Source: Candidatus Poribacteria bacterium | GTDB taxonomy: Bacteria > Poribacteria > WGA-4E > PCPOR2b | Direction of reading: 5' to 3' | DNA length: 64,000 nt | Assembly (NCBI GenBank): GCA_965218095.1 | Contig: OZ244587.1 | Span: 5,696,001-5,760,000, forward strand | In this document: positions 41,357-59,937 of the stretch, piece by piece | Position numbering within the stretch: the first letter of the stretch is position 1 | Layout: every line of letters starts with the position of its first letter | The notes under the pieces: generated by a model | The model's database searches: none | What the model saw: the letters and a program-made list of their open reading frames with translations, nothing else | What the model was told of the DNA's origin: nothing | Program-made: the position numbers and the translations under genes

Positions 41357-43930
41357 TCAGATACCCAACCAATAATTTAACTTGATGAGGAAGACATTAT
41401 CCCCCTTGTCAATGAAGCTCTTTCTTACACCTTCGTACAGGTTGAACTCTGGATTATCCACATCTATGAAGGCCCCACGAGATTGCGACCACACCGCAAA
41501 TAGGGTGCTTCCAGGCTGATACTCCCAGCGAAGTACCATGTTACTCCTCAACGATCGACGGATAAAATCCGGATTGTCGTCAACAAAAGTGTACGGGGCA
41601 AAGTCATACGAGTCGGGACGCGCTAGTTCTTTGAAGTTGCGGAAATTTCCGACCGTGGCAAACGGTTGGAGATACAGTTGGAACGTCAGATTGGTAGTGA
41701 AGGCAACAGTCGCTCGTGTTGTGAAGTCGAGTACTTGACTCCTCAACTCTCCAAATACGTAGTGATCGGTTTCGCCATCTCCATCATCGTCGATGTTCCT
41801 GACCCACTGCGCAAAATCTTTGGCATTTCGGTACGAAGGGCCAAGTTCGAACTGTAGATTGGACGCGGGACGAATGGAGGTGGTTATCTTAAGGCTTCGT
41901 TGCCAACTGGATGCACCGTCGGTTCGGTCTCCGAATACATCGAGAGACAGGCCAATTGCCCGACGATTATCAGTTTGTAGAAAAAACCAATACTCAATCT
42001 GAGCAGGTCGCACCATCACGGGGCCGCCTCGTGTTTCAAGATCGTCTCTCGCCTCGAATTCTCGACTGATTCCGACGTTAAAGAACCAGTAATTCTTCAG
42101 GTTATGCCAAGTGTTGAAATTGATTCCCTTCCTTAAACCTACACCGTCATAATTCCAGTGTGACCAGGCATTGAAGTTAAAAAACGACTCGCGAGCAAGC
42201 ACCCAGGGCTGCCGAATATGTGTATAAACGTGCCCTCCTGACTGGACTCGGTTCGTCCGATTCATGAATCCCAGATCATTGGCGTCAAACTCGGGGGATC
42301 GCGCATCTAGATATAGTTGTCCTCCAAACCCGCCAGAGAACTTGGAAAAGTAGGCAATGGCTTCATAACCGTCGGCTTGATTATTGGTAGCATCGCTTCG
42401 GCTGCCTACCAGCCGTGTGAAGATGCGGTACGCATTCTCCTTCCACTTGAGAGTTCCGTCAATGCTTGCGACATAGGCAGCTTCGACATCATGCCGATTC
42501 ACGGCTGTAATCGTGCCCCCTATTGTCGAGTGCGTTCGCAAATCCTGCTGTACTCTTGCGGTAAGGAAGTTCGTAAAGGGTTCAATGCGATGCCGCTGTC
42601 GTTCTGTTTGTTCCAACCCTGTCTGCTTATCGATTAAGATCTGTTCGACAGTAGCGTATTCGCTTGCGGTTATGGCCTCCAAAATGCTGAAGGACGTTTT
42701 CTTCACGGTCTTCCCAGAGAGTTTCGCTGCACCTAAGATAGTTGTAGAATCCGGACGGTCGATAATCACGCCGCCGTCAGGTGTCGAAGAGTGCCCTGGT
42801 TGCTTTCCGATGCGTCGGGAGTAAAAGAGTTGGGCGGGACCATCGATGCCGACAATCTGCGGTTGTGGGAACCGGAAGATTGTATTCCCCTCGATAAAAA
42901 AGGGACGCCTCTCCTCAAAAAAGTTCTCGAACACCGACAGATTCAGCACTGCAGGATCAGTTTCAACTTGCCCAAAGTCGGGATTGAATGTTGCATTGAG
43001 CGAAATGTTGGGCGAAAGACCATATCGCAGGTCCATGCCTACACTCGAAAACAGCTCATGGCTGTCAATGTATGCATCGCTCTTGCTTTCGAACGTTGCG
43101 CGAGCCCTCATAAAGGGAAGAAACTCCAGGTGTGTGGGAGGCTTTATGCCCTTGATGCCTTCGAGGTGCCCCAAGCGGGAGACCCAACCACCTGTCCCTC
43201 GTGGAACTACGATCCACTGGTCATGCTCTTCTTTCCGCGTGATGTATCGTTCAATATTTGTTCCCCATATATACTCTGCACTGGCACCGAATCGTAGAAC
43301 ATGGTATGGAATTTTGTACTCGATGCTCCACCCTTGGTCATGGACTGAGGTCTTGGCTTGCCAAACGCCATCCCATGTATCGTCTCGCGAAGTGTCGTCG
43401 TAGAGCGTGCCATCACGTATCCATCCAGAGGGACCGACAACAAAGAAACGACCGTTCTGGTGATCGTGGTGCGGGTCAAGGCTAATTGAAACCCAGTCTG
43501 ATTTAAGTTCCTGATCTCGCCGACCCATGCGAGAGACAATCTTATCCGGCTCGCTGTCATAGCACATGATACCAATATAGAGCGCGTTGTCATCGTAGGC
43601 AACTTGCACATTTGTCCGCTCTGTGGGGAGCTCCCCTTCGTCCGGGTCCTTTTGAGTGAAATTGTGGTAGGATGGGGCGTATTTCCAGACTTCATCACTC
43701 AGAACCCCATCAATCTTGGGAGGCATGGGATTAACGCGGACGGCAGTCATAGTTTTTTCGGGATGATTGCTTTCTGTTCCCTGACCCCAAAGCTGGCTAG
43801 ATGAGCCGAGGACACAGAGCGCTAGAGCAGTCCAGCCCAACGCCAACCGATAAAATTCTCGGACAGGGCAAGTCACACAGGAACCGCCGGTCTTTTTACT
43901 TTGCACCGGTTTGCAATTGGCTTTTATCAT
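41357..43930 (-). CDS. CBM9-like + DUF5916 putative outer membrane protein
   Basis: PKIDGVLSDEVW, ATFNPDFGQVE, ERRPFFIEG, LFYSRRIG, LRWEYQPGS...IKLNYW. Confidence 0.82.
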   Translation of the reverse strand: MIKANCKPVQSKKTGGSCVTCPVREFYRLALGWTALALCVLGSSSQLWGQGTESNHPEKTMTAVRVNPMPPKIDGVLSDEVWKYAPSYHNFTQKDPDEGELPTERTNVQVAYDDNALYIGIMCYDSEPDKIVSRMGRRDQELKSDWVSISLDPHHDHQNGRFFVVGPSGWIRDGTLYDDTSRDDTWDGVWQAKTSVHDQGWSIEYKIPYHVLRFGASAEYIWGTNIERYITRKEEHDQWIVVPRGTGGWVSRLGHLEGIKGIKPPTHLEFLPFMRARATFESKSDAYIDSHELFSSVGMDLRYGLSPNISLNATFNPDFGQVETDPAVLNLSVFENFFEERRPFFIEGNTIFRFPQPQIVGIDGPAQLFYSRRIGKQPGHSSTPDGGVIIDRPDSTTILGAAKLSGKTVKKTSFSILEAITASEYATVEQILIDKQTGLEQTERQRHRIEPFTNFLTARVQQDLRTHSTIGGTITAVNRHDVEAAYVASIDGTLKWKENAYRIFTRLVGSRSDATNNQADGYEAIAYFSKFSGGFGGQLYLDARSPEFDANDLGFMNRTNRVQSGGHVYTHIRQPWVLARESFFNFNAWSHWNYDGVGLRKGINFNTWHNLKNYWFFNVGISREFEARDDLETRGGPVMVRPAQIEYWFFLQTDNRRAIGLSLDVFGDRTDGASSWQRSLKITTSIRPASNLQFELGPSYRNAKDFAQWVRNIDDDGDGETDHYVFGELRSQVLDFTTRATVAFTTNLTFQLYLQPFATVGNFRNFKELARPDSYDFAPYTFVDDNPDFIRRSLRSNMVLRWEYQPGSTLFAVWSQSRGAFIDVDNPEFNLYEGVRKSFIDKGDNVFLIKLNYWLGI

Positions 43931-44251: not shown

Positions 44252-45071
44252 GGTTCTGTTGACATTTGAGTATAAGGTTGTGGCATAATAGAAGAATGAC
44301 GCCAATAACCTTACCTGATGAACAATGGAATAAGATATACCGGTTTCTTCTAAGCTGTCCCACCATCTATGTTGGCGACGAAGCTGCTCCACGCCGCTTC
44401 GTCGAAGCGGTTCTGTGGGTGACTCGTAGTGGGGCTCAATGGAGACTTCTACCAGACACCTATGGCAAATGGAACACCCGCTACAAGCGGTTTGCTCGAT
44501 GGTGCGACAAAGGTATCTTCACACAGATGCACCACCACTTTGCCTCTGACCCTGATATCGAGTCGCTTATTGTGGACAATACCATCTGCCGCGCTCACCC
44601 GTCTGCGGCGGGCACCTTAAAAAAAACGGTGGCACTGAAAGCCAAGCATTAGGTCGGTCTCGGGGCGGTTTCAGTACAAAAAATCACATCACAGTTGACG
44701 GACTAGGCAATCCCCTAAGAATTCATCTGACACCCGGTCAGAGACATGACATAACTGAGGCGGAAGGGTTGATAATCGGATATAACAGTGAATATGTGAT
44801 TGGAGATAAGGGGTACGATTCGGACGCTTTTATCGCGGTTATTGAGGCGAATGGAGCGATTGCGGTGATACCGCCAAAAAGTCATCGTGTTGACCAAAGA
44901 ACGTATGACAAACACTTATACAAAGAGAGACATCGGGTTGAATGTTTCATTAACAAGATAAAATGGTATCGTCGTATCTTCTCTCGGTTTGAGAAACTAG
45001 CTGTCCGTTATTTTGGATTTCTCAGCTTTGTCTCCACTCTTATATGGCTCCCTTAAAATGTCAACAGAACC
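44252..45071 (+). mobile_element. IS5-family type B, copy 4, inserted in the panC stop codon
   Basis: 820 bp, perfect IRs, A8 slippery run; first DDE motif reads DNT versus DST in the other copies. Confidence 0.93.
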
Positions 45072-45956: not shown

Positions 45957-46604
45957 TTACGATGCACCCCCAACTTCAAGGCGGAAGAATAGTTTTCCCA
46001 TAATCAACTCATCACCGTGATTCAATGAGGCTTTCTGTCCCTGCACAAGCCGTTTGCCTCGATTGATAAACGTCCCGTTGAGGCTCCCGAGATCTTCGAT
46101 GAAATACCCCCCATTTTCAAAAGTTACCTTCGCGTGACTGCGAGAGATTTTGCTGTCGAGGTTTTCATCCGCGAGGTCAATCTTAGGGAAATGCCTGTTC
46201 TCCGCATCCCGCCGACCCATGCGAATCTCTGGGGAATCAAGCGCGTAGATTTTTCCGACCGGACCGTTTCGCAAGATAACGAGCTTTGCATCCCCATTGG
46301 TTGAGGCGCGGTTGTCTGGAATTGGCACGGGTAGAGGCATCGGTGAAGCGACCGCGTCCGGTACACTCTGTGATGAAATTTGCGTTTCTAGCGCCTGTAC
46401 TGGGAAAGAGAGCGCCGGTAGCAGCGGCGATGGTAATTCTGCTGCTTCCTGTTTTTCTTCGACAACTTCGACGTCAATCACATCCGTATCGGCGGTAACT
46501 TGGTTCCTGAGATCGCTGCCGCAATCGTCGCAAAAATCGAGACCATCTGGATTAGAATATCCACAGACCTTTCCATCGATAATGGCTTGACATATAATTG
46601 GCAT
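45957..46604 (-). CDS. Zinc-ribbon + Pro-rich linker + FHA domain protein
   Basis: C...CGYSN..FCDDCG; FHA motifs GR, ISRSHA, EDLGSLNGTFIN; GGAGG RBS. Confidence 0.9.
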   Translation of the reverse strand: MPIICQAIIDGKVCGYSNPDGLDFCDDCGSDLRNQVTADTDVIDVEVVEEKQEAAELPSPLLPALSFPVQALETQISSQSVPDAVASPMPLPVPIPDNRASTNGDAKLVILRNGPVGKIYALDSPEIRMGRRDAENRHFPKIDLADENLDSKISRSHAKVTFENGGYFIEDLGSLNGTFINRGKRLVQGQKASLNHGDELIMGKLFFRLEVGGAS

Positions 46605-46756: not shown

Positions 46757-48811
46757 TCAGTTTGTTGGTTTGGGCGTCAAGGCAAAGTGGGGCGCTCCCT
46801 GCTTCTGCGCTGCTTGATACACTTCCACTGCTTGTGGAAAATCCTCTGGCGCAAGATCTTCTTCTTCAAATTCCGGTTGCAACGGATCAAGCATGAGAAA
46901 CAGTTTCTGATACGGTTCATAGAGTTGGATATAACTCCAATTGACGCCGCACAGAACTTCCTGTTCATTCGCCAACTTGACGAATCTACCGCGAAATTTG
47001 GCGCGAGTAGTTTCGGGCGGATGGTGCATCGCATACTTAATATCGTCGTCAGTAACGATTCGTTCAACGAGTCCTTCTTTCAGAAGTTTGTGATACAGCC
47101 CAATCTCTGGCTGAATGTCGTGATATTGAAGATCCAGTTCTGCGACTTCATCGGAATCCCACGCTAAGCCTCGACGATTAACCTCCGTATCAATCAGTTT
47201 CTTCTTAATCACCCAATCGATCTCGCGATCCAGTTGCATCGGATCCCTTTCCAGACGGCTCAACACAGATTCCCATTTTGCCATGATCTGATCGGTCATT
47301 GGATCCGATTCGGTCTGATCAAAGTACCGTTTCGCAAGCTCCAGGTATTCTCGCTGCATCCCGATCGCTGAGAGCTGTCTCCCGTTCGCCAATTCAACCT
47401 TTTGGGTACAGGTCGTATCCGCTGAAATCTGCTTGATGGCACGCACCGAGTCGCGTAGAGTCAAACCGTCTCCGAGAAAATTATCCTCTATTATGCGCAC
47501 GACGATCGCCGTCGTCCCGATCTTGAGGTACGTCGCAAATTCGGACATATTGTTGTCACCGGAAGTTACGTGCAACCGTCGATATTTTGTTGCATCCGCA
47601 TAGATTGCATCATCACACAGATTGATGATGCCGCGTACCTGATGGTCCGAAGTGATCTGCTCATGGATATGTTCGGCGCGTTGGGAGAGGGCGTATCCCC
47701 CTCGATCTGTAGGTTTGACTTGACCCGAGCCCGTGAAGATCTGGCGTGTGACCAGAAAGGGAACAAGCTGCAAAGATAGCTGCTCGTCGGTCACATGACT
47801 CGCCATCAGATAGTTTTCGTGGCAGCCATAGGTGCCAGAGCAACCTTTGTAAACGGAGATACGCTGCGTAAATCCATCGGCTCGCATCTTCTTCGCCGCG
47901 GAATCGAACAAACGCTGGAGGATTCGTTCTCCGGCTTTCTCGTGCGTAACCACATCAACGACATTATCGCACTCAGGGGTTGCATATTCAGGGAGGCGCC
48001 CCCGGTCTTGATAGAATCGCGCCCCATTTTCCAGAAACACATCGGGGTACATCCGACCTGAAATAATCTCACGGAAGAGGTACACAATGACATCTTCTCT
48101 CGGTAGAGGTTTTTCTCCCCCGGATTCAACCTGAAAATCATACTCGGACTCAATTCCAAGGATGCGACGCTGCAACGATTTTGGTTTCAAGATTCCTTCT
48201 GACATTTTGTAAATCTCCTCTCTAAGGTATGCCCGCTCAATCTGCAACGGTCCGGGACTGGCGGCAAAGGCGGGTTCTTTCGATAGTTTCTCTTTGACCT
48301 GCTGTTTTGCCTGCTGTAGCCGTCCTGAAACGGTTGATGTTGAGAGATCAAGGGTTGTCGCAATGTTTCGGTACGACCAACCTTCCAGATAGAGCAGAAA
48401 CACCCGTTGGTTGTTAGCAGGGAGCGCCGCCACTGCCTTGACGATAGTATCGGAGAGTTCACGTCCTTCGGCGAAAGCATCTGGTGTGGGCGAACCATCT
48501 GGCACGTCAGCGGCGTCTGAGGCTTCGAGTGATTCGAGCGTCAAACGCCGTTTCCGCAACGAGGCGTGGCACAGGTTGCGCGTAATGCGGTACATCCAGC
48601 CCGCAATTTTCTCTCGATCTTGCAGCGTTGCCAGGTGCTGATAGGCCTGGATAAACGCCTCCTGGACAAGATCTTCTGCCTCTGACAGATTGCCCACTTG
48701 CGACAACGCCAGGTTTAACAAACCCGGCTGATGCTGCTCCATCAAGCGCGCAAAAGCGTTTTGGTCCCCCTGAAGGGTTAGGTTGACTAACATTGCATCG
48801 AGCGATGACAT
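46757..48811 (-). CDS. ECF sigma-70 factor fused to a PafA (Pup--protein ligase)-family domain
   Basis: aa 1-175: AEDLVQEAF, GWMYRITRNLC, region 4 SYRNIATTL...TVSGRL; aa ~213-645: RRILGIESEY, FLENGARFYQD, PEYATPEC, YGCHENY, PFLVTRQ, LSQRAEH, YRRLH, IDWVIKK, DLQYHDI, PPETTRA. Confidence 0.92.
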   Translation of the reverse strand: MSSLDAMLVNLTLQGDQNAFARLMEQHQPGLLNLALSQVGNLSEAEDLVQEAFIQAYQHLATLQDREKIAGWMYRITRNLCHASLRKRRLTLESLEASDAADVPDGSPTPDAFAEGRELSDTIVKAVAALPANNQRVFLLYLEGWSYRNIATTLDLSTSTVSGRLQQAKQQVKEKLSKEPAFAASPGPLQIERAYLREEIYKMSEGILKPKSLQRRILGIESEYDFQVESGGEKPLPREDVIVYLFREIISGRMYPDVFLENGARFYQDRGRLPEYATPECDNVVDVVTHEKAGERILQRLFDSAAKKMRADGFTQRISVYKGCSGTYGCHENYLMASHVTDEQLSLQLVPFLVTRQIFTGSGQVKPTDRGGYALSQRAEHIHEQITSDHQVRGIINLCDDAIYADATKYRRLHVTSGDNNMSEFATYLKIGTTAIVVRIIEDNFLGDGLTLRDSVRAIKQISADTTCTQKVELANGRQLSAIGMQREYLELAKRYFDQTESDPMTDQIMAKWESVLSRLERDPMQLDREIDWVIKKKLIDTEVNRRGLAWDSDEVAELDLQYHDIQPEIGLYHKLLKEGLVERIVTDDDIKYAMHHPPETTRAKFRGRFVKLANEQEVLCGVNWSYIQLYEPYQKLFLMLDPLQPEFEEEDLAPEDFPQAVEVYQAAQKQGAPHFALTPKPTN

Positions 48812-48844
48812 CGAAAGCCTCTCCTTTCGATCTGTTCACCTTAA

Positions 48845-48870
48845 TAGATGCGAAAATTGAGGAGATTCAA
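48845..48870 (-). promoter_or_regulatory. Candidate ECF-type promoter of the sigma-PafA gene
   Basis: A-tract then TTGAATC-N12-GCATCTA on the minus strand, upstream of AAAGGAG RBS; loose match only. Confidence 0.35.
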
Positions 48871-48920
48871 TTTTTTTTTGGGAGAGAGGTGATAAGTTGA
48901 ACGGTCCACTCTTACGCCTT

Positions 48921-49675
48921 TCACGTTTGGTTATTCAATTTGCAGTAAAGGGTCTTGCGGCCAATGCCCAACAGTTTGGCCGCTTCAGTCAAGTGTCCGT
49001 CAGATGGATGGCGTGGGCAATTAGTTCCTTGCCGGTTCCATTTTCACCGGTGATTAGAACGCTTGTGCCCTCTGCCTTTTGAAGACGCCGAATGTTCACC
49101 AGGATTTCGTCAAGGGTTTCGCTCTGTCCCACAAAGCCTGCAATCCCCCAACGTTCTGCGCCCCGCTCAGAAATCAGCGAAAGCTGTTCGTCAGCGGTTT
49201 GCAGTACATTTTCTGCACGTTCACGCTTGGCGATTTCCTGTTGGAGTTCTCTGTTTTTGTGGCGAAGCACCTGCGCCAGTCGAGCGTTTTTCAGGTGGGC
49301 CTCGACACGGAGGAGGGCTTCCTTGGTCCGAAAAGGCTTGGTGATGTAATCCACGGCGCCAACTTCAAAACCTTCGATGACACTCTCGGCTTCATCCTTG
49401 GCGGTGATAAAGATAATAGGAGTATCCGCTGTTACGTCATCTTCCCTGAGTTGACGATAGGTTTCAAAGCCGTTCATCCCCGGCATCAGGATATCCAAGA
49501 GGGCGAGGTCTAGTTTCACCTCCGGGGTAATTTTCAGGGCAATCGCTCCACTCGGGACTGCTGATACTTGATACCCTTCAGACTCAAGTGTTTGGCGTAG
49601 AATCTCCAGATTTTCGAGTTGGTCATCAACGATGAGGATTTTTACGTCGGTGGAGTCAATGTGTCTTTGATTCAT
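48921..49675 (-). pseudogene. Sigma54-dependent response regulator with most of the AAA+ domain deleted
   Basis: Receiver domain, GENGTGKELIAHAIH, then stop; Fis HTH LTEAAKLLGIGRKTLY follows out of frame. Confidence 0.88.
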
Positions 49676-49679
49676 GACT

Positions 49680-50423
49680 TTAGCTCTCCCATTGTTGAAT
49701 CTCTGACAGAATCTCTGTAATCCCAGCCATATCATTGCTTTGACTCAAGCGTCGTAGATGTTCCGCGAGCTGTTGACCCACGGCGCTGACTTGAGCAACT
49801 TCGCCGAGATAGTTCTCAAATTCCGTCTGACTGTATAATTCCGCCGCTTGCTTCATGCGCGAGAGCAAGTCTTCCAGGAGTGTGATTGCTGAGAGATCCA
49901 AGGATACCGTATCCAACGACGTTGCTTCCGCATATTCGTATTTGACCTCCAAAAGCGTCGCCAAACACTGATAGATCTCCTCGGCACGGAAGGGTTTAGA
50001 GACAAACGCGTTGAAGCCTGCCGACAGATACCTCTCCCGTTCATGTGCAAAGGTCGAAGCCGAAATCTCGACGATTTTCACGCGCTCATCTTCTTCCTCA
50101 AATTCTTCCCAGATCTGCTGCGCTGCTTCCAAACCATTCATCACGGGCATACGAATGTCTATCAAGGCAATCTCCGGCTGATGTGCACGAAACATCTCCA
50201 CCGCCTGACGCCCATTTTTAGCCAACACTACCTCACAGCCGATGCTCGACAGCATTTCCGCCAAAATATCTCGATTCTCCTGGATGTCGTCGGTGATCAA
50301 GACTTTCACCGAACAGCCTGCTGCCAGGTGAGCGACTGGCGCCACCACCTCTGTTGAAGGCATGTCAACTGCTCCGGTGGCAGGTTCAAGCGGCACAGTG
50401 AAGAAGAAACGAGATCCTTTGCC
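49680..50423 (-). pseudogene. Hybrid histidine kinase, C-terminal fragment
   Basis: Begins at HATPase tail GKGSRFFFTVP; receiver DD...DIRMPVMNG...KP; 5' part missing. Confidence 0.85.
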
Positions 50424-56255: not shown

Positions 56256-56496
56256 TTCGATTTCACCTTCTTTCTCAATGAGAATTTCGGGTGATGTTGA
56301 GCCATCACCCGCGTGCACGGGATGATACCCTTTTATACACGTTTTCAACTTCCTTCTTAGGCCGAACTTGGGTGAGGATAATAGATCGAAGGGAGACTGT
56401 CAGCGAGGAGACATGCACGAAAATACTTCCAATCCGTTCCATCTTATGCGAAAATAGTTGCTCCATCAAGTCACTGAGTCGAGAGAGGCGTTTCCA

Positions 56497-59400
56497 ATGA
56501 AACCGGCATTGTCACGGTTCCTACTGCTCGGGCTTTTACTTTCCGGCGAAGTGTGGGAGGCAACTGCCCAACCCCAGGCAGATACAATCAGCATCGTCGG
56601 CACCCTCTTTATGCCAATGCCCGATCACACGACCCCGCATGTTGCTGTTCTTGTCCAGGCTGTTAGGGACGGGAAAGTGGTTGACACAACGTTGAGCGAT
56701 GAAGCGGGTCAGTTTTCGTTCGTCAACCTGAAGCTGGGACAGTACCAGGTACGATGTCAAACGCCGGCGGGGTATGTCTACCCGGTAAGGTATGTCTACC
56801 CGGTAAAGGGGGAAATTCATCAGGTCGTCGCTGGAGAAACGCTACAGGTTCATTTCCACATCGGTCCGTTCAAAAAAGGAACGTGGAAGCACTATGATAC
56901 CCTTGATGGATTGGCAGATAACGATGTCACCGCCATCTACCGCAGCCTCGATGGTGTCATGTGGTTCGGGACCGATGGCGGCGGTGTTTCTGTATACGAT
57001 GGCGAACGGTTCAACACCTTCACGACTCAGGACGGATTGGCGAGCAACTTCGTCCGTTCCATCTATAGCACAGATGATGCCGCCATCTGGTTCGCAACCC
57101 AAGGTGGCGTGTCTCGCTATGACGGTGCCCGTCGGAATGACGGGATGACATTCACCAACCTGACGGAAAAAGAGGGTTTGGTGCATAACGATGTCTACGC
57201 GGTTTATCAGACGCTAGATGGCATGCTGTGGTTTGGAACGGCAGGCGGCGTCTCCCAATACAACGGCAAAGGGTTCGTCAATTTGACGGAAGAAGAGGGG
57301 TTAGCACATGATCATGTCTATGCTATTTGTCAAACTTTAGATGGCGTGCTGTGGTTTGCGACACACGGGGGCGGCGTCTCTGCATACGATGGAAAGGGAA
57401 TTATCAAACGGCTGATGGAGGAGGACGGCTTGGCGGATAGCCGTGTCCATACCATCTATGCCGCTCCTGATGACACACTATGGTTTGGCACTGACAGCGG
57501 TGTCTCTGTGTACGATCAGAGTAAATTTATCACGCATCTCACGGAGAAGGCTGGGTTAGTGGACAACCGTGTGCACGCCATTTGTCGGGTGTCGGATGGT
57601 GCGATGTGGTTTGGTACACCGGCGGGCGCTTCTCGGTACGACGGAAAGACAGTGGTCAACTTCACCACAGGAGATGGTCTGAAACACAACCACGTCACCG
57701 TAATTCACGCCGCTCCTGATGGGACGATATGGTTCGGGACGGATGGCGGCGGTATTTCCGCCTACGATGGGGAAGGATTTGTCAGCTTCACTGCGGCAGA
57801 AGGGCTGGCAAGTAACTGGATTCATGATATCTATCAGGTGCCGGAGGGGGCAATATGGTTTGGGACATCGGGCGGGGTATCTCGGTACGACCTCCATCCG
57901 TCGCCCGGGACAGATGGACGCCGATTTGTTAATTTTACGACTCAGGATGGTCTGGTCAATAACACCGTACGGACTGTTTATCATGGACGAAAAGATACAG
58001 ATGGGGTGATGTGGTTTGGCACGGACAGCGGTGTATCTCAATACAATGCAGCCCACCATGCTGACGGGCTGCCGTTCGTTAATCTCACGACACAAGAGGG
58101 CCTAATCAACGACACCGTGAGAGCCATCCACCGCACGCCCGATGGAACGATGTGGTTTGGAACAGATGGGGGCGTCTCTGCGTATAACGGAGAACGGTTC
58201 GTCAATCTCACCGCCCAAGACGGGTTGGTGGACAACCGCATTCGTGCCATCTGTGACACGCCCGATGGGATTCTGTGGTTCGCAACACACGGTGGTGTGT
58301 CCCGTTATCATCTCACAGCGCGTGAAGATGAAAATCGGCTTCTCAACTTCACCGGCGAAGATGGGCTGCCGAGTCATTTCGTCAATGACCTCCTGCCTGC
58401 GCCCGGCGGTGTGATGTGGTTTGCGACATACAGCGGTGTATCTCGATACGATGCCTCCCCGCATTCCGATGGGGTGCCATTTGCCAATTTTACAATCAAA
58501 GATGGATTGGTGGATAACGAGGTCAACGCCCTTTATCGGAGCGGCGACGGAACGATGTGGTTTGGAACAGATGGGGGCGTCTCTATGTACGATGGTATTG
58601 CGTGGGGTTCTTTGGATACATGGGAAGGATTGGTCGGTGCCAACGTGACGGCGATTCACGAAGACACAAACGGATTCTTATGGTTCGGAACAACCGAAGG
58701 TGTCACGCGCTATCGTCGAAATACCGTGCCGTCAACGGTTCGTATCGTTACTGTAAGTGTTGCGTCCATGCGAGCGGATAGGCGATATACGCCTTCTGAG
58801 AAAATTCCATCTATCACTGCTGGCAGCTACGTCACCATCGAATATCAAGCCATCGATTTCAAAACCCACCCACAGAAGCGACAGTATCGCTATCGAATTC
58901 AAGAAATTGACAGAGACGAGCGTTCTATTGCGCGTCCTTATCTCCCGCCAACCAAAGAGACGGTGTTTGCGTGGACGCCCCAAAGAGCGGGTGTCTATAT
59001 TTTTGAAGTGCGGGCGATTGATCGCGATTTGAATGACTCTGCCCCCGCAAGTATGACGTTGAAAGTCGTGCCGCGGTGGTATCTCAACGCCTGGATCGCT
59101 ATTCCCTCGGTGATGTCGATTGCGGGCTTCCTCGTTCTGTTCATCGTTTTCGTCGGGCGTTACTATGCCAAGCGCCGCGAAGCACAACGATTACGGGGAG
59201 AGATGTTTCAACAGGAACAAAGTGCCCGTGAACAGGCGGAGGGAAACGCCAATACGCTTCGCGGTCTGGCTCACGCCGTTAAAAATCCGCTGGCAATCAT
59301 CGAAGCCTGCTCAGAAAATTTGGTGCTGTTAGAAGAGACAGCGCCTGTGGGAATGCATTCTAGAGGTGCCACCGGCAGATGCTTGCGAGAAATCAGAGAA

Positions 59401-59937
59401 CAGGTAAATCACGCGCGTCAGACGGTCAATCAACTACTTAAGGCAACGGCGCAACCCGAATTTCGGCTTTTTGATCTGCGCCTTGAGATTGAACTCCTGC
59501 TGCACGAAACGCTGCAAAGAAATCCAGATTGGGAGCATAAAATCACTCTTCGTAAACAGTGCGAAGCGATACCACACATCAACGGAGATGTGGATAAGCT
59601 GTGGATAGCATTTGAGAACGTCTTTATCAATGCGTGTGAAGCGATGGAGGAAACCGGTGGCACCCTTACCCTCCGAATGACCCGGACGGTTAATGCCATC
59701 CGAATTGATATACAAGACACCGGCTGCGGTATTAACGCGGAAGCGTTGCAAAATGTCTTTAAGCCGCTGTATTCTACCAAGAAGGATAGAGGCGGCACCG
59801 GTTTAGGCATGTGGATTGCGAAGCAAATTATTGATGAACACCGCGGGCAGATTGATATTCTGTCAAAACCCGACGTTGGAACAACCATCCATGTAGATTT
59901 GCCGATTTCTCCGGATGAGGCGACTACTGCGCTGTAA
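56497..59937 (+). CDS. Sensor histidine kinase with periplasmic beta-propeller (Reg_prop) repeats and YYY-like domain
   Basis: Signal peptide, many DGL..N.V.AI...DG.MWFGT.GGVS.YDG repeats, TM helix, LAHAVKNPL, N box, DTGCGI, GTGLG. Confidence 0.92.
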   Translation: MKPALSRFLLLGLLLSGEVWEATAQPQADTISIVGTLFMPMPDHTTPHVAVLVQAVRDGKVVDTTLSDEAGQFSFVNLKLGQYQVRCQTPAGYVYPVRYVYPVKGEIHQVVAGETLQVHFHIGPFKKGTWKHYDTLDGLADNDVTAIYRSLDGVMWFGTDGGGVSVYDGERFNTFTTQDGLASNFVRSIYSTDDAAIWFATQGGVSRYDGARRNDGMTFTNLTEKEGLVHNDVYAVYQTLDGMLWFGTAGGVSQYNGKGFVNLTEEEGLAHDHVYAICQTLDGVLWFATHGGGVSAYDGKGIIKRLMEEDGLADSRVHTIYAAPDDTLWFGTDSGVSVYDQSKFITHLTEKAGLVDNRVHAICRVSDGAMWFGTPAGASRYDGKTVVNFTTGDGLKHNHVTVIHAAPDGTIWFGTDGGGISAYDGEGFVSFTAAEGLASNWIHDIYQVPEGAIWFGTSGGVSRYDLHPSPGTDGRRFVNFTTQDGLVNNTVRTVYHGRKDTDGVMWFGTDSGVSQYNAAHHADGLPFVNLTTQEGLINDTVRAIHRTPDGTMWFGTDGGVSAYNGERFVNLTAQDGLVDNRIRAICDTPDGILWFATHGGVSRYHLTAREDENRLLNFTGEDGLPSHFVNDLLPAPGGVMWFATYSGVSRYDASPHSDGVPFANFTIKDGLVDNEVNALYRSGDGTMWFGTDGGVSMYDGIAWGSLDTWEGLVGANVTAIHEDTNGFLWFGTTEGVTRYRRNTVPSTVRIVTVSVASMRADRRYTPSEKIPSITAGSYVTIEYQAIDFKTHPQKRQYRYRIQEIDRDERSIARPYLPPTKETVFAWTPQRAGVYIFEVRAIDRDLNDSAPASMTLKVVPRWYLNAWIAIPSVMSIAGFLVLFIVFVGRYYAKRREAQRLRGEMFQQEQSAREQAEGNANTLRGLAHAVKNPLAIIEACSENLVLLEETAPVGMHSRGATGRCLREIREQVNHARQTVNQLLKATAQPEFRLFDLRLEIELLLHETLQRNPDWEHKITLRKQCEAIPHINGDVDKLWIAFENVFINACEAMEETGGTLTLRMTRTVNAIRIDIQDTGCGINAEALQNVFKPLYSTKKDRGGTGLGMWIAKQIIDEHRGQIDILSKPDVGTTIHVDLPISPDEATTAL

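Follow-up and report, generated by a model that had tools for sequence, protein, structure and literature searches.

The gene described here lies on the reverse strand, at 46757..48811, of a window of 64,000 nucleotides from a Candidatus Poribacteria bacterium (assembly GCA_965218095.1, contig OZ244587.1, positions 5,696,001 to 5,760,000), and encodes a 684-residue protein, P0001, in which an extracytoplasmic function (ECF) σ factor is fused to a domain derived from the Pup ligase PafA, the active site of which is degenerate. The reading favoured here, with a probability of roughly 60%, is that this PafA-derived domain is a pseudo-ligase serving a “one-component” ECF σ factor in cis, as its regulatory or sensing extension. 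A one-component regulator with a ligase fold had been proposed in an earlier note on this DNA and is the best-supported reading; the further option raised there, that the domain tags the σ factor, is disfavoured by the degenerate active site. Fusions of this kind form two clades, termed a, which includes P0001, and b.

When its domains are considered one by one, all of them encoded on the reverse strand, the protein starts with a complete ECF core. The σ domain comprises residues 1–177 (48281..48811), with a σ2 region at residues 23–89 (48545-48745; Pfam Sigma70_r2, E 1.8e-16) and a σ4 region at residues 123–171 (48299-48445; Pfam Sigma70_r4_2, E 2.6e-11), both within a Sigma70_ECF match that extends over residues 7–177. 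The ECF superfamily model TIGR02937 of NCBIfam scores 92.7 bits, above its cut-off of 42.9, and the solved ECF σ factors SigE and SigW match residues 12–181 with E-values of 1e-17 to 1e-18. No σ3 match (r3) is found in the protein with Pfam, and the layout is that of an ECF (Group 4), namely σ2 plus σ4 without σ1.1 or σ3. Many residues of both regions are invariant in the alignment of the two clades. The σ domain is followed by a linker of 35 residues (178–212; 48176..48280), in which both clades have L196, E198, E199 and M203 without exception and which is homologous to the C-terminal tail of a stand-alone σ factor encoded by another Poribacteria genome, G041.

The second part of the protein, residues 213–650 (46862..48175), is homologous to PafA over practically the whole length of the enzyme. 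Pfam recognizes Pup_ligase (PF03136) at residues 225–628 (E 1.7e-127), and the PafA model TIGR03686 (NCBIfam) aligns residues 215–649 with its positions 1–448 of 457, but the score of 427.5 bits does not reach 551.3, the equivalog cut-off; with the Dop model TIGR03688 the score is lower still (344.7 bits, cut-off 492.3). Among solved structures, Corynebacterium glutamicum PafA (4B0T) matches residues 212–665 (E 1e-82), and the match of the solved Dop, with an E-value of 3.9e-84, covers only residues 257–627. The spacing between the GhExE and NGxR motifs is 40 residues in all 15 clade-a fusions; canonical PafA has 40–42 residues there, PafA2 has 54 and the Dop2 of the genome has 84. The Dop-loop is thus absent. 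The protein ends in an acidic tail (residues 651–684 and stop codon; 46757..46861) that is conserved only inside clade a and is short or absent in clade b. Altogether, the C-terminal extension on the ECF core measures 472 aa and is present in all full-length members. The gene was therefore described correctly as one uninterrupted frame of 684 codons, with an ATG start and no internal stop, holding ECF regions 2 and 4 and a full-length domain colinear with PafA and without the Dop insertion; what does not stand is the view of that domain as an intact PafA.

The degeneration of the active site emerges from an alignment of 25 fusions, 15 of them from clade a, with 16 canonical PafA/Dop sequences, which comprise the four paralogues of the genome, five Poribacteria PafA and seven sequences from Nitrospirota, Actinomycetota and Myxococcota. 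The canonical sequences share 83 invariant columns, and clade a keeps 66–72 of these (71 in P0001) and clade b 59–63. Between residues 219 and 418, one or more fusions deviate in 33 of 52 canonical-invariant columns, whereas between residues 419 and 625 deviations are confined to 6 of 31 and the other 25 are invariant in all 25 fusions. For a closer comparison, 19 active-site columns were picked by hand, either because they lie in strands or loops named as active site in PMC12053664 or because roles have been published for them. None of these is lost in any of the 16 canonical sequences, while 3–6 are lost in clade a and 12–13 in clade b. H273, R338 and T398 are gone in 15 of 15 clade-a members, all of which also carry an insertion in the so-called extended loop, and 11 of the 15 show further losses that differ from member to member (D269E, E223K, E275K, R393C/G/H, H414R), D269E being found in two and the loss of R393 in seven. 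In clade b, the losses include the two Glu residues in GhExE and the catalytic Asp; HPEY is without its Glu, GCHENY without its His and NTRDEPHAD without its Arg, and in YRRLH the first Arg as well as the His is gone. R603 and W625 are invariant in all fusions; they are the equivalents of PafA R418 and W440, which bind the adenine and the ribose (PMC12053664).

P0001 itself misses four of the 19 residues (H273L, R338S, T398L and R399C), to which H404Y and the loop insertion have to be added. Its remodelled extended loop, RGIINLCDDAIYAD (residues 393–406; 47594..47635), replaces the canonical R-x-IINTRDEPHAD and differs from it by T398L, R399C, a one-residue insertion, P403I and H404Y. The independent cluster P0002 has the same loop sequence, including R399C and H404Y. 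In the catalytic-Asp loop QDRGRL (269–273; 47993..48007), D269 is kept and the His of the canonical HPEY has become L273. The weight of these changes can be judged from published work. The catalytic Asp is D64 in C. glutamicum PafA (PMC7947786, Table 1 note). R399 occupies the position of PafA R207, which corresponds to Dop R227, a residue holding the active-site phosphate, and Dop H231 lies stacked inside the pocket for the nucleotide (PMC8599861). R207 also belongs, together with R137 and R218, to substrate-recognition site 2 of PafA, with R137 at the substrate rim (PMC10465538); the PafA extended loop, residues 196–216, touches the substrate, and the substitutions R201A and R207A nearly abolish pupylation (bioRxiv 10.64898/2026.04.10.717840). 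R201, the equivalent of R393, has been described as the sole contact to the C-terminal Glu of Pup in PafA. Judged by these residues, catalysis in clade a would at best be residual, and in P0001 it would be further compromised by R399C.

Between P0001 and its counterpart in genome G055, the ratio of nonsynonymous to synonymous substitution rates (dN/dS) is 0.144 for the σ domain (dS about 0.9–1.0), 0.218 for the linker (dS 0.48), 0.140 for the PafA-like domain (438 codons, dS about 1) and 0.256 for the tail. Within clade b, the comparison of genomes G005 and G006 gives 0.133 for σ domain plus linker and 0.243 for the PafA-like domain. Both halves of the fusion are thus under purifying selection. 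The canonical PafA1 of the same genome, compared with five relatives at similar dS, has a dN/dS of 0.027–0.045; nonsynonymous change is 3–5 times faster in the fused domain, which is constrained, yet 3–5 times less than the parent enzyme. As clade b is catalytically dead and nevertheless constrained, catalysis cannot be a requirement of the function that the family conserves. Catalytic, Mg/phosphate and substrate-rim residues have gone; the kept fold, C-terminal domain and adenine and ribose contacts, together with an intact ECF core and the lack of an anti-σ partner, fit a cis-acting regulatory pseudoenzyme. The protein also has the features by which “one-component” ECFs are recognized, a fused extension longer than 50 aa that is conserved along with the core, and the lack of a cognate anti-σ gene nearby; none of the neighbouring genes tested encodes an anti-σ domain, nor is any anti-σ-like gene conserved in the vicinity.

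The ancestral partners of such a domain are at hand in the cell. The 6.35-Mb genome contains five genes of the Pup_ligase family and two tagging clusters. The first (~302–308 kb) encodes Mpa, Dop, Pup (65 aa, with a GGE end), PrcB, PrcA and PafA1, and the second (G000:C1:2205234-2212193) an ARC-like ATPase, a Dop-like protein, UBact (PF20513, E 1.1e-18; ORF end at 2209235), PrcB, PrcA and a PafA-like protein. Pup, UBact, Dop, Mpa, PrcAB and a canonical PafA are accordingly all present, and the objection that the genome might lack any Pup or UBact machinery falls away. The fusion, at 5.74 Mb, lies outside both clusters. Pup is encoded in four of the five other fusion carriers, the exception being the 73%-complete genome G007. 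Of 176 Poribacteria genomes, 167 contain UBact, G005 and G006 being without it, so that carrying two ubiquitin-like tagging systems in one cell is a trait of the phylum.

In the scheme that would accommodate these observations, a duplicate of PafA was fused to an ECF σ factor, turned non-catalytic or at best crippled, and was retained under selection as a built-in regulatory or sensor domain. Depending on the ligand bound, this domain would hold σ2 and σ4 in an inactive or an active state. The most natural ligand would be the ancestral one, Pup, free or conjugated and possibly together with a nucleotide, the binding of which may persist in clade a. Transcription from the σ factor's own conserved promoter and from its regulon would then track the state of Pup tagging. 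Pup, which all the carriers checked but G007 encode, G005 and G006 in the absence of UBact, is the natural candidate among ligands; the more specific proposal that the pseudo-ligase is a Pup receptor through which the σ factor is switched on or off by the pool of free or conjugated Pup is a tentative one, clearly less probable than the cis-regulatory role as such.

Several points weigh against the cis-regulatory reading. First, clade a, including P0001, retains GhExE, D269, E275, H331, N333, R411, R412 and H414, because of which some residual ATP binding or weak catalysis may have survived there. Second, R393 is an Arg in only 8 of 15 clade-a members and is lost in clade b; since it is not conserved, Pup, if bound, would not be held in the canonical catalytic pose. 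Third, the numbering that links residues to published roles was mapped by hand from a HMMER alignment, and the PafA and Dop literature consulted yielded no published role for the equivalent of H273. Fourth, the gene is dispensable in many lineages, being absent from most Poribacteria genomes among the matches listed, and the fusion is broken in two genomes (G054 and G036) and cut down to the σ factor alone in two others (G041 and G049). Finally, a regulon could not be recognized by motif search, as TGAA[TC]-N13-15-C[AG]TCTA[TA] occurs at 21 sites in the genome and at 14–21 in shuffled sequences, with 4 against 3–5 for a stricter form of the motif.

The most serious rival is that the pseudo-ligase binds a protein of the Pup machinery rather than the tag, for instance PafA1, in a domain-swapped heterodimer, or Dop or Mpa, the machinery then playing the part of an anti-σ-like partner or, conversely, the σ factor modulating PafA1. 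It is common for pseudoenzymes to regulate an active paralogue. PafA is reported to form domain-swapped dimers, in which the active site is occluded, through its N-terminal β1/α1 motif, and in the fusion this very motif comes straight after the linker. The fused domain is moreover 67% identical to PafA1, and the non-conservation of the Pup C-terminus contact R393 would be in keeping with a protein rather than a tag as ligand. The absence of any genomic linkage to the Pup cluster, cluster 1 being 5.4 Mb away, speaks against it, and this option appears possible but improbable.

Somewhat less probable again is that the domain of clade a, P0001 included, is still an active Pup ligase, brought to RNA polymerase by the σ factor or pupylating the latter in cis, so that σ turnover would track Pup. 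The residues listed above as retained, which are kept in most clade-a members (with E221 and E223 representing GhExE), as well as R603 and W625 in all of them, would permit such activity, as would a PafA-type domain free of the Dop-loop in a genome with a full Pup-proteasome system. This has to be set against the uniform absence of H273, R338 and T398 and the loop insertion in 15 of 15 clade-a members, the additional losses in 11 of them, which even reach D269, E223, E275 and R393, the replacement in P0001 of the Arg whose change to Ala in PafA nearly abolishes pupylation, the persistence of constraint in clade b with 12–13 of 19 active-site residues gone, and the faster nonsynonymous change relative to PafA1.

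As regards the origin of the family, phylogenies of the two parts are congruent. In the tree of PafA domains, the fusions sit with the canonical Poribacteria PafA (SH-aLRT, the Shimodaira–Hasegawa-like approximate likelihood ratio test, 98) and form one group (88), on stems of 0.32–0.34 compared with 0.03–0.24 for canonical tips. An approximately unbiased (AU) test does not reject a tree in which the two fusion clades are split (p-AU 0.34), and the case for a single origin thus rests on the σ tree and on the shared linker. In the σ tree, clade a, clade b and the stand-alone σ factors make up one clade (SH-aLRT 99), outside which fall the six other Poribacteria ECFs used for comparison. The stand-alone σ factors nest within clade a (98), on a long branch, and are therefore secondary domain losses. 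From these trees we infer that one old fusion, between an ECF gene and a duplicate of PafA1, was passed on as a unit and often lost.

The earlier note had left room for the possibility that the fusion occurs only in this assembly; in fact, the same architecture recurs in other genomes and in metagenomes. In a collection of 5.8 billion proteins, clade a is represented by 14 clusters (673–684 aa, 74–99% identity to the fusion) and clade b by 6 clusters (46–49% identity over 95% of the length), all of which combine the σ domain with PF03136; one of them is annotated merely as 'sigma-70 family ... Candidatus Poribacteria'. When only the σ domain and linker were used as query, 20 of 20 matches (E ≤ 1e-10, length 376–1197) carried PF03136. 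In an index-free phmmer search of 1.84 billion representatives, only P0007 and P0121 among the best 150 matches cover the full query and one more is a fragment; the remaining 147 begin at residue 201 or later. Shortened forms (P0016, P0095, P0122) are present in metagenomes. PafA matches that seemed to extend upstream, in Nitrospirota (L059, L054) and in genus g9 (L024, L025), are not fusions, the added stretch being prcA in frame ahead of a stop codon.

Among Poribacteria, to whose metagenome-assembled genomes the relatives of the source genome belong, a frame spanning the junction is found in at least 8 of 176 species genomes among the matches listed. In family f1, the source genome (G000) and G055 carry intact copies, the G054 copy is split after residue 430 ('MSEFATYL') by an insertion of ~230 bp (L099:2790-3024), and the G036 copy is frameshifted near residues 267–300 (L152:~806-908). 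Carriers in families f5–f7 are G005, G006, G007 and G008, with 48–52% identity. G041 and G049 encode stand-alone σ factors of 211–219 aa that are 60% identical through the linker. The fusion is thus a rare, single-copy family of two 50%-identity clusters, confined to an uncultured, sponge-associated phylum.

That the fusion is genuine and not an assembly artefact is borne out by sequencing contigs. The junction (linker, nt 48176-48280) is spanned without gaps by a contig of 3,711 bp from run X1, which covers 46919-49000, and also by overlapping contigs of run X4; no indels at the junction are listed in four runs from three studies, although one of the bridging runs may be the source of the window itself. 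The X1 contig also covers the region 48200-48300, for which a check of the reads had been advised. P0002, a near-identical protein from another assembly, differs at four positions and agrees with P0001 at the unusual sites. In the four runs, contig depth rises 10- to 100-fold at 46843-47004 and 47977-48138 and contigs break there, because these segments are the best conserved with canonical pafA, and reads from paralogues or other Poribacteria pile up on them. The notion of a neutral relic, arisen where a stop codon was lost or the assembly joined two genes in error, and with its PafA part decaying, could appeal to the patchy occurrence, to the broken copies of G054 and G036 and the σ factors left alone in G041 and G049, and to the pseudogene and insertion sequence (IS) fragments nearby, but is highly improbable and already largely refuted by a dN/dS of 0.14 over 438 codons at a dS of about 1, by an open frame kept between clades that are only about 50% identical and live in different families, by the 25 of 31 columns that are invariant in residues 419–625 of all 25 fusions, and by the independent contigs across the junction.

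Upstream of the gene, on the same strand, lies a candidate promoter, TTGAAT-N14-CATCTA (48845..48870), of the ECF-like 'AAT/AAC...CGTC' form, followed by the ribosome-binding site GAAAGGAG (48821..48828), 9 nt ahead of the ATG. The candidate promoter marks the 5' edge of a block of ~70 nt that is common to the source genome, G055, G054 and the stand-alone σ gene of G041 and holds TTGAAT-N14-C(A/G)TCTATTA as well as GAAAGGAG, which is kept in all four aligned upstream regions. At the same place, G007 has TTAAC-N15-CGTCTATA, of the CGTCTA form, and no such motif is evident upstream of the G005 fusion. Such a block would fit an ECF promoter that is autoregulated. Directly upstream of this promoter, an NtrC-type regulator gene (48989-49735, reverse strand) is an internal-deletion pseudogene: its frame encodes a receiver domain and only positions 2–44 of 168 of Sigma54_activat, corresponding to the Walker-A start of that AAA domain, and a remnant of the C-terminal helix-turn-helix, AAKLLGIGRKTLYCKL, comes next in another frame (region 48812-49735). 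The next response-regulator ORF upstream, 49680-50396, shows no break. The idea that the genes just upstream are pseudogenes thus applies to the former and not to the latter.

Downstream of the fusion, by 152 bp, a gene on the reverse strand (45957-46604), which overlaps panC by 23 bp, encodes a protein of 215 aa that has a Cys-rich, zinc-ribbon-like motif at its N-terminus and an FHA domain at its C-terminus. The order fusion, FHA gene, panC is shared with G036 and not with G055. As an obligate partner this gene can be discarded, since it does not follow the fusion in G055 and has no equivalent in clade b. Just past panC, two adjoining ORFs (44266-45056, forward strand) hold DUF4096 and DDE transposase fragments of the IS4/IS5 family; this locus lacks the sugar-isomerase-like gene found after the fusion in G055 and G036, and the two observations suggest an IS-linked rearrangement. 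The surroundings further include a hybrid sensor kinase of 1159 aa with Reg_prop/Y_Y_Y propeller repeats (56458-59937, forward strand) and a DUF5916/CBM9 protein of 857 aa (41357-43930, reverse strand). Neighbours of clade-b fusions differ from those of clade a and from one another, except in the congeneric G005 and G006, and no gene is conserved beside the fusion across G000, G055, G036 and G005–G008. In G041, the stand-alone σ factor (211 aa; L151:6897-9048) is followed by genes for a single-pass membrane protein of 120 aa and a membrane protein of 328 aa, neither of which matches a Pfam family. The smaller one was considered as an anti-σ factor but, having no Pfam family, is not called as such; the two may have taken over regulation once the PafA-like domain was lost.

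Sigma70_r2 matches number 28 in the genome. Many Poribacteria ECFs, with many per genome, lie in open frames of 700–1280 aa, and those long ones that were examined carry WD40 β-propellers or TPR-like regions (L141:1486-3537, L144:1-2148, L139:1-2151, L147:12420-14519). Several such ECF fusions stand in tandem in genera g17 and g18. Given these ECF-WD40 and ECF-TPR fusions, large extensions on ECFs are common in the phylum. They resemble the PafA fusion in attaching large protein-binding domains to an ECF core, and differ from it in the fold of the extension and in being abundant, whereas the PafA fusion is single-copy and rare. ECF-WD40 proteins similar to those of Poribacteria are known from Planctomycetes.

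When compared with known systems, the protein is closest in design to ECFs with C-terminal extensions, of which the ECF classification 2.0 counts 19 groups (PMC7826278), for instance ECF41, ECF56, ECF294 and also ECF295, which carry SnoaL-like domains, ECF42 with TPR and ECF238 with a Cys-rich extension. It shares with these a σ2/σ4 core plus fused domain, the lack of a conserved anti-σ factor and an extension that co-evolves with the core; unlike theirs, its ~470-aa extension derives from a ubiquitin-like tagging enzyme. Pup, PafA, proteasome and ligase are not mentioned in the main texts of PMC7826278 and PMC8999054, the supplements of which list the rare groups, and the literature searched yielded no description of an ECF with a Pup ligase or PafA extension, nor anything related on Poribacteria and pupylation or on PafA and pseudoenzymes. 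The remark that no described ECF group has a PafA extension therefore agrees with the literature and the classification main texts, within the parts of these sources that were covered. Thus, a Pup-pathway pseudo-ligase appears to be a new type of ECF extension, within the already known kind of ECFs with regulatory extensions.

With PafA itself (C. glutamicum 4B0T, 4BJR), the fused domain has in common whole-enzyme homology, the missing Dop-loop, the C-terminal domain, the adenine and ribose contacts and its grouping with Poribacteria PafA. It departs from PafA in its score under the equivalog cut-off, in H273L, R338S, T398L, R399C, H404Y and the loop insertion, in its position outside the Pup-proteasome cluster, in being joined to a σ factor and in its faster nonsynonymous change. 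Dop (4B0R, 7OXY) belongs to the same fold family and gives a similar E-value; in contrast to it, the fused domain has no ~40-residue Dop-loop ahead of β2, branches with PafA in trees and has Cys and Tyr at the equivalents of R227 and H231. Finally, the wHTH-WYL (winged helix-turn-helix) activators PafBC, encoded in the actinobacterial Pup-proteasome locus and acting in the DNA damage response (PMC8223512), likewise tie the Pup-proteasome system to a transcriptional stress response. They are, however, separate proteins without homology to the fusion, in which the σ factor itself carries the PafA-derived domain.

The reach of these considerations is set by the material, a rare family from an uncultured, sponge-associated phylum whose function is deduced from sequences. 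ECFs that bear a sensor are a recognized principle of signalling, and what ubiquitination is elsewhere, pupylation is in bacteria; in the literature searched, nothing has been described that wires the two together directly. The fusion offers a compact, testable case of it, since a single polypeptide, a known ancestral ligand (Pup, ATP) and a conserved candidate promoter come together, and nature has supplied “experiments”: one clade that is fully dead, one that is half-dead, and derivatives that have lost the domain. If the cis-regulatory reading is true, an enzyme of a tagging pathway has been recruited as a regulatory pseudoenzyme, which would be the first of the PafA/Dop family as far as the searched literature shows, and the ECF catalogue gains an extension type. 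Were the domain, more specifically, a Pup receptor, no transcription factor found before this σ factor would have read a prokaryotic ubiquitin-like tag.

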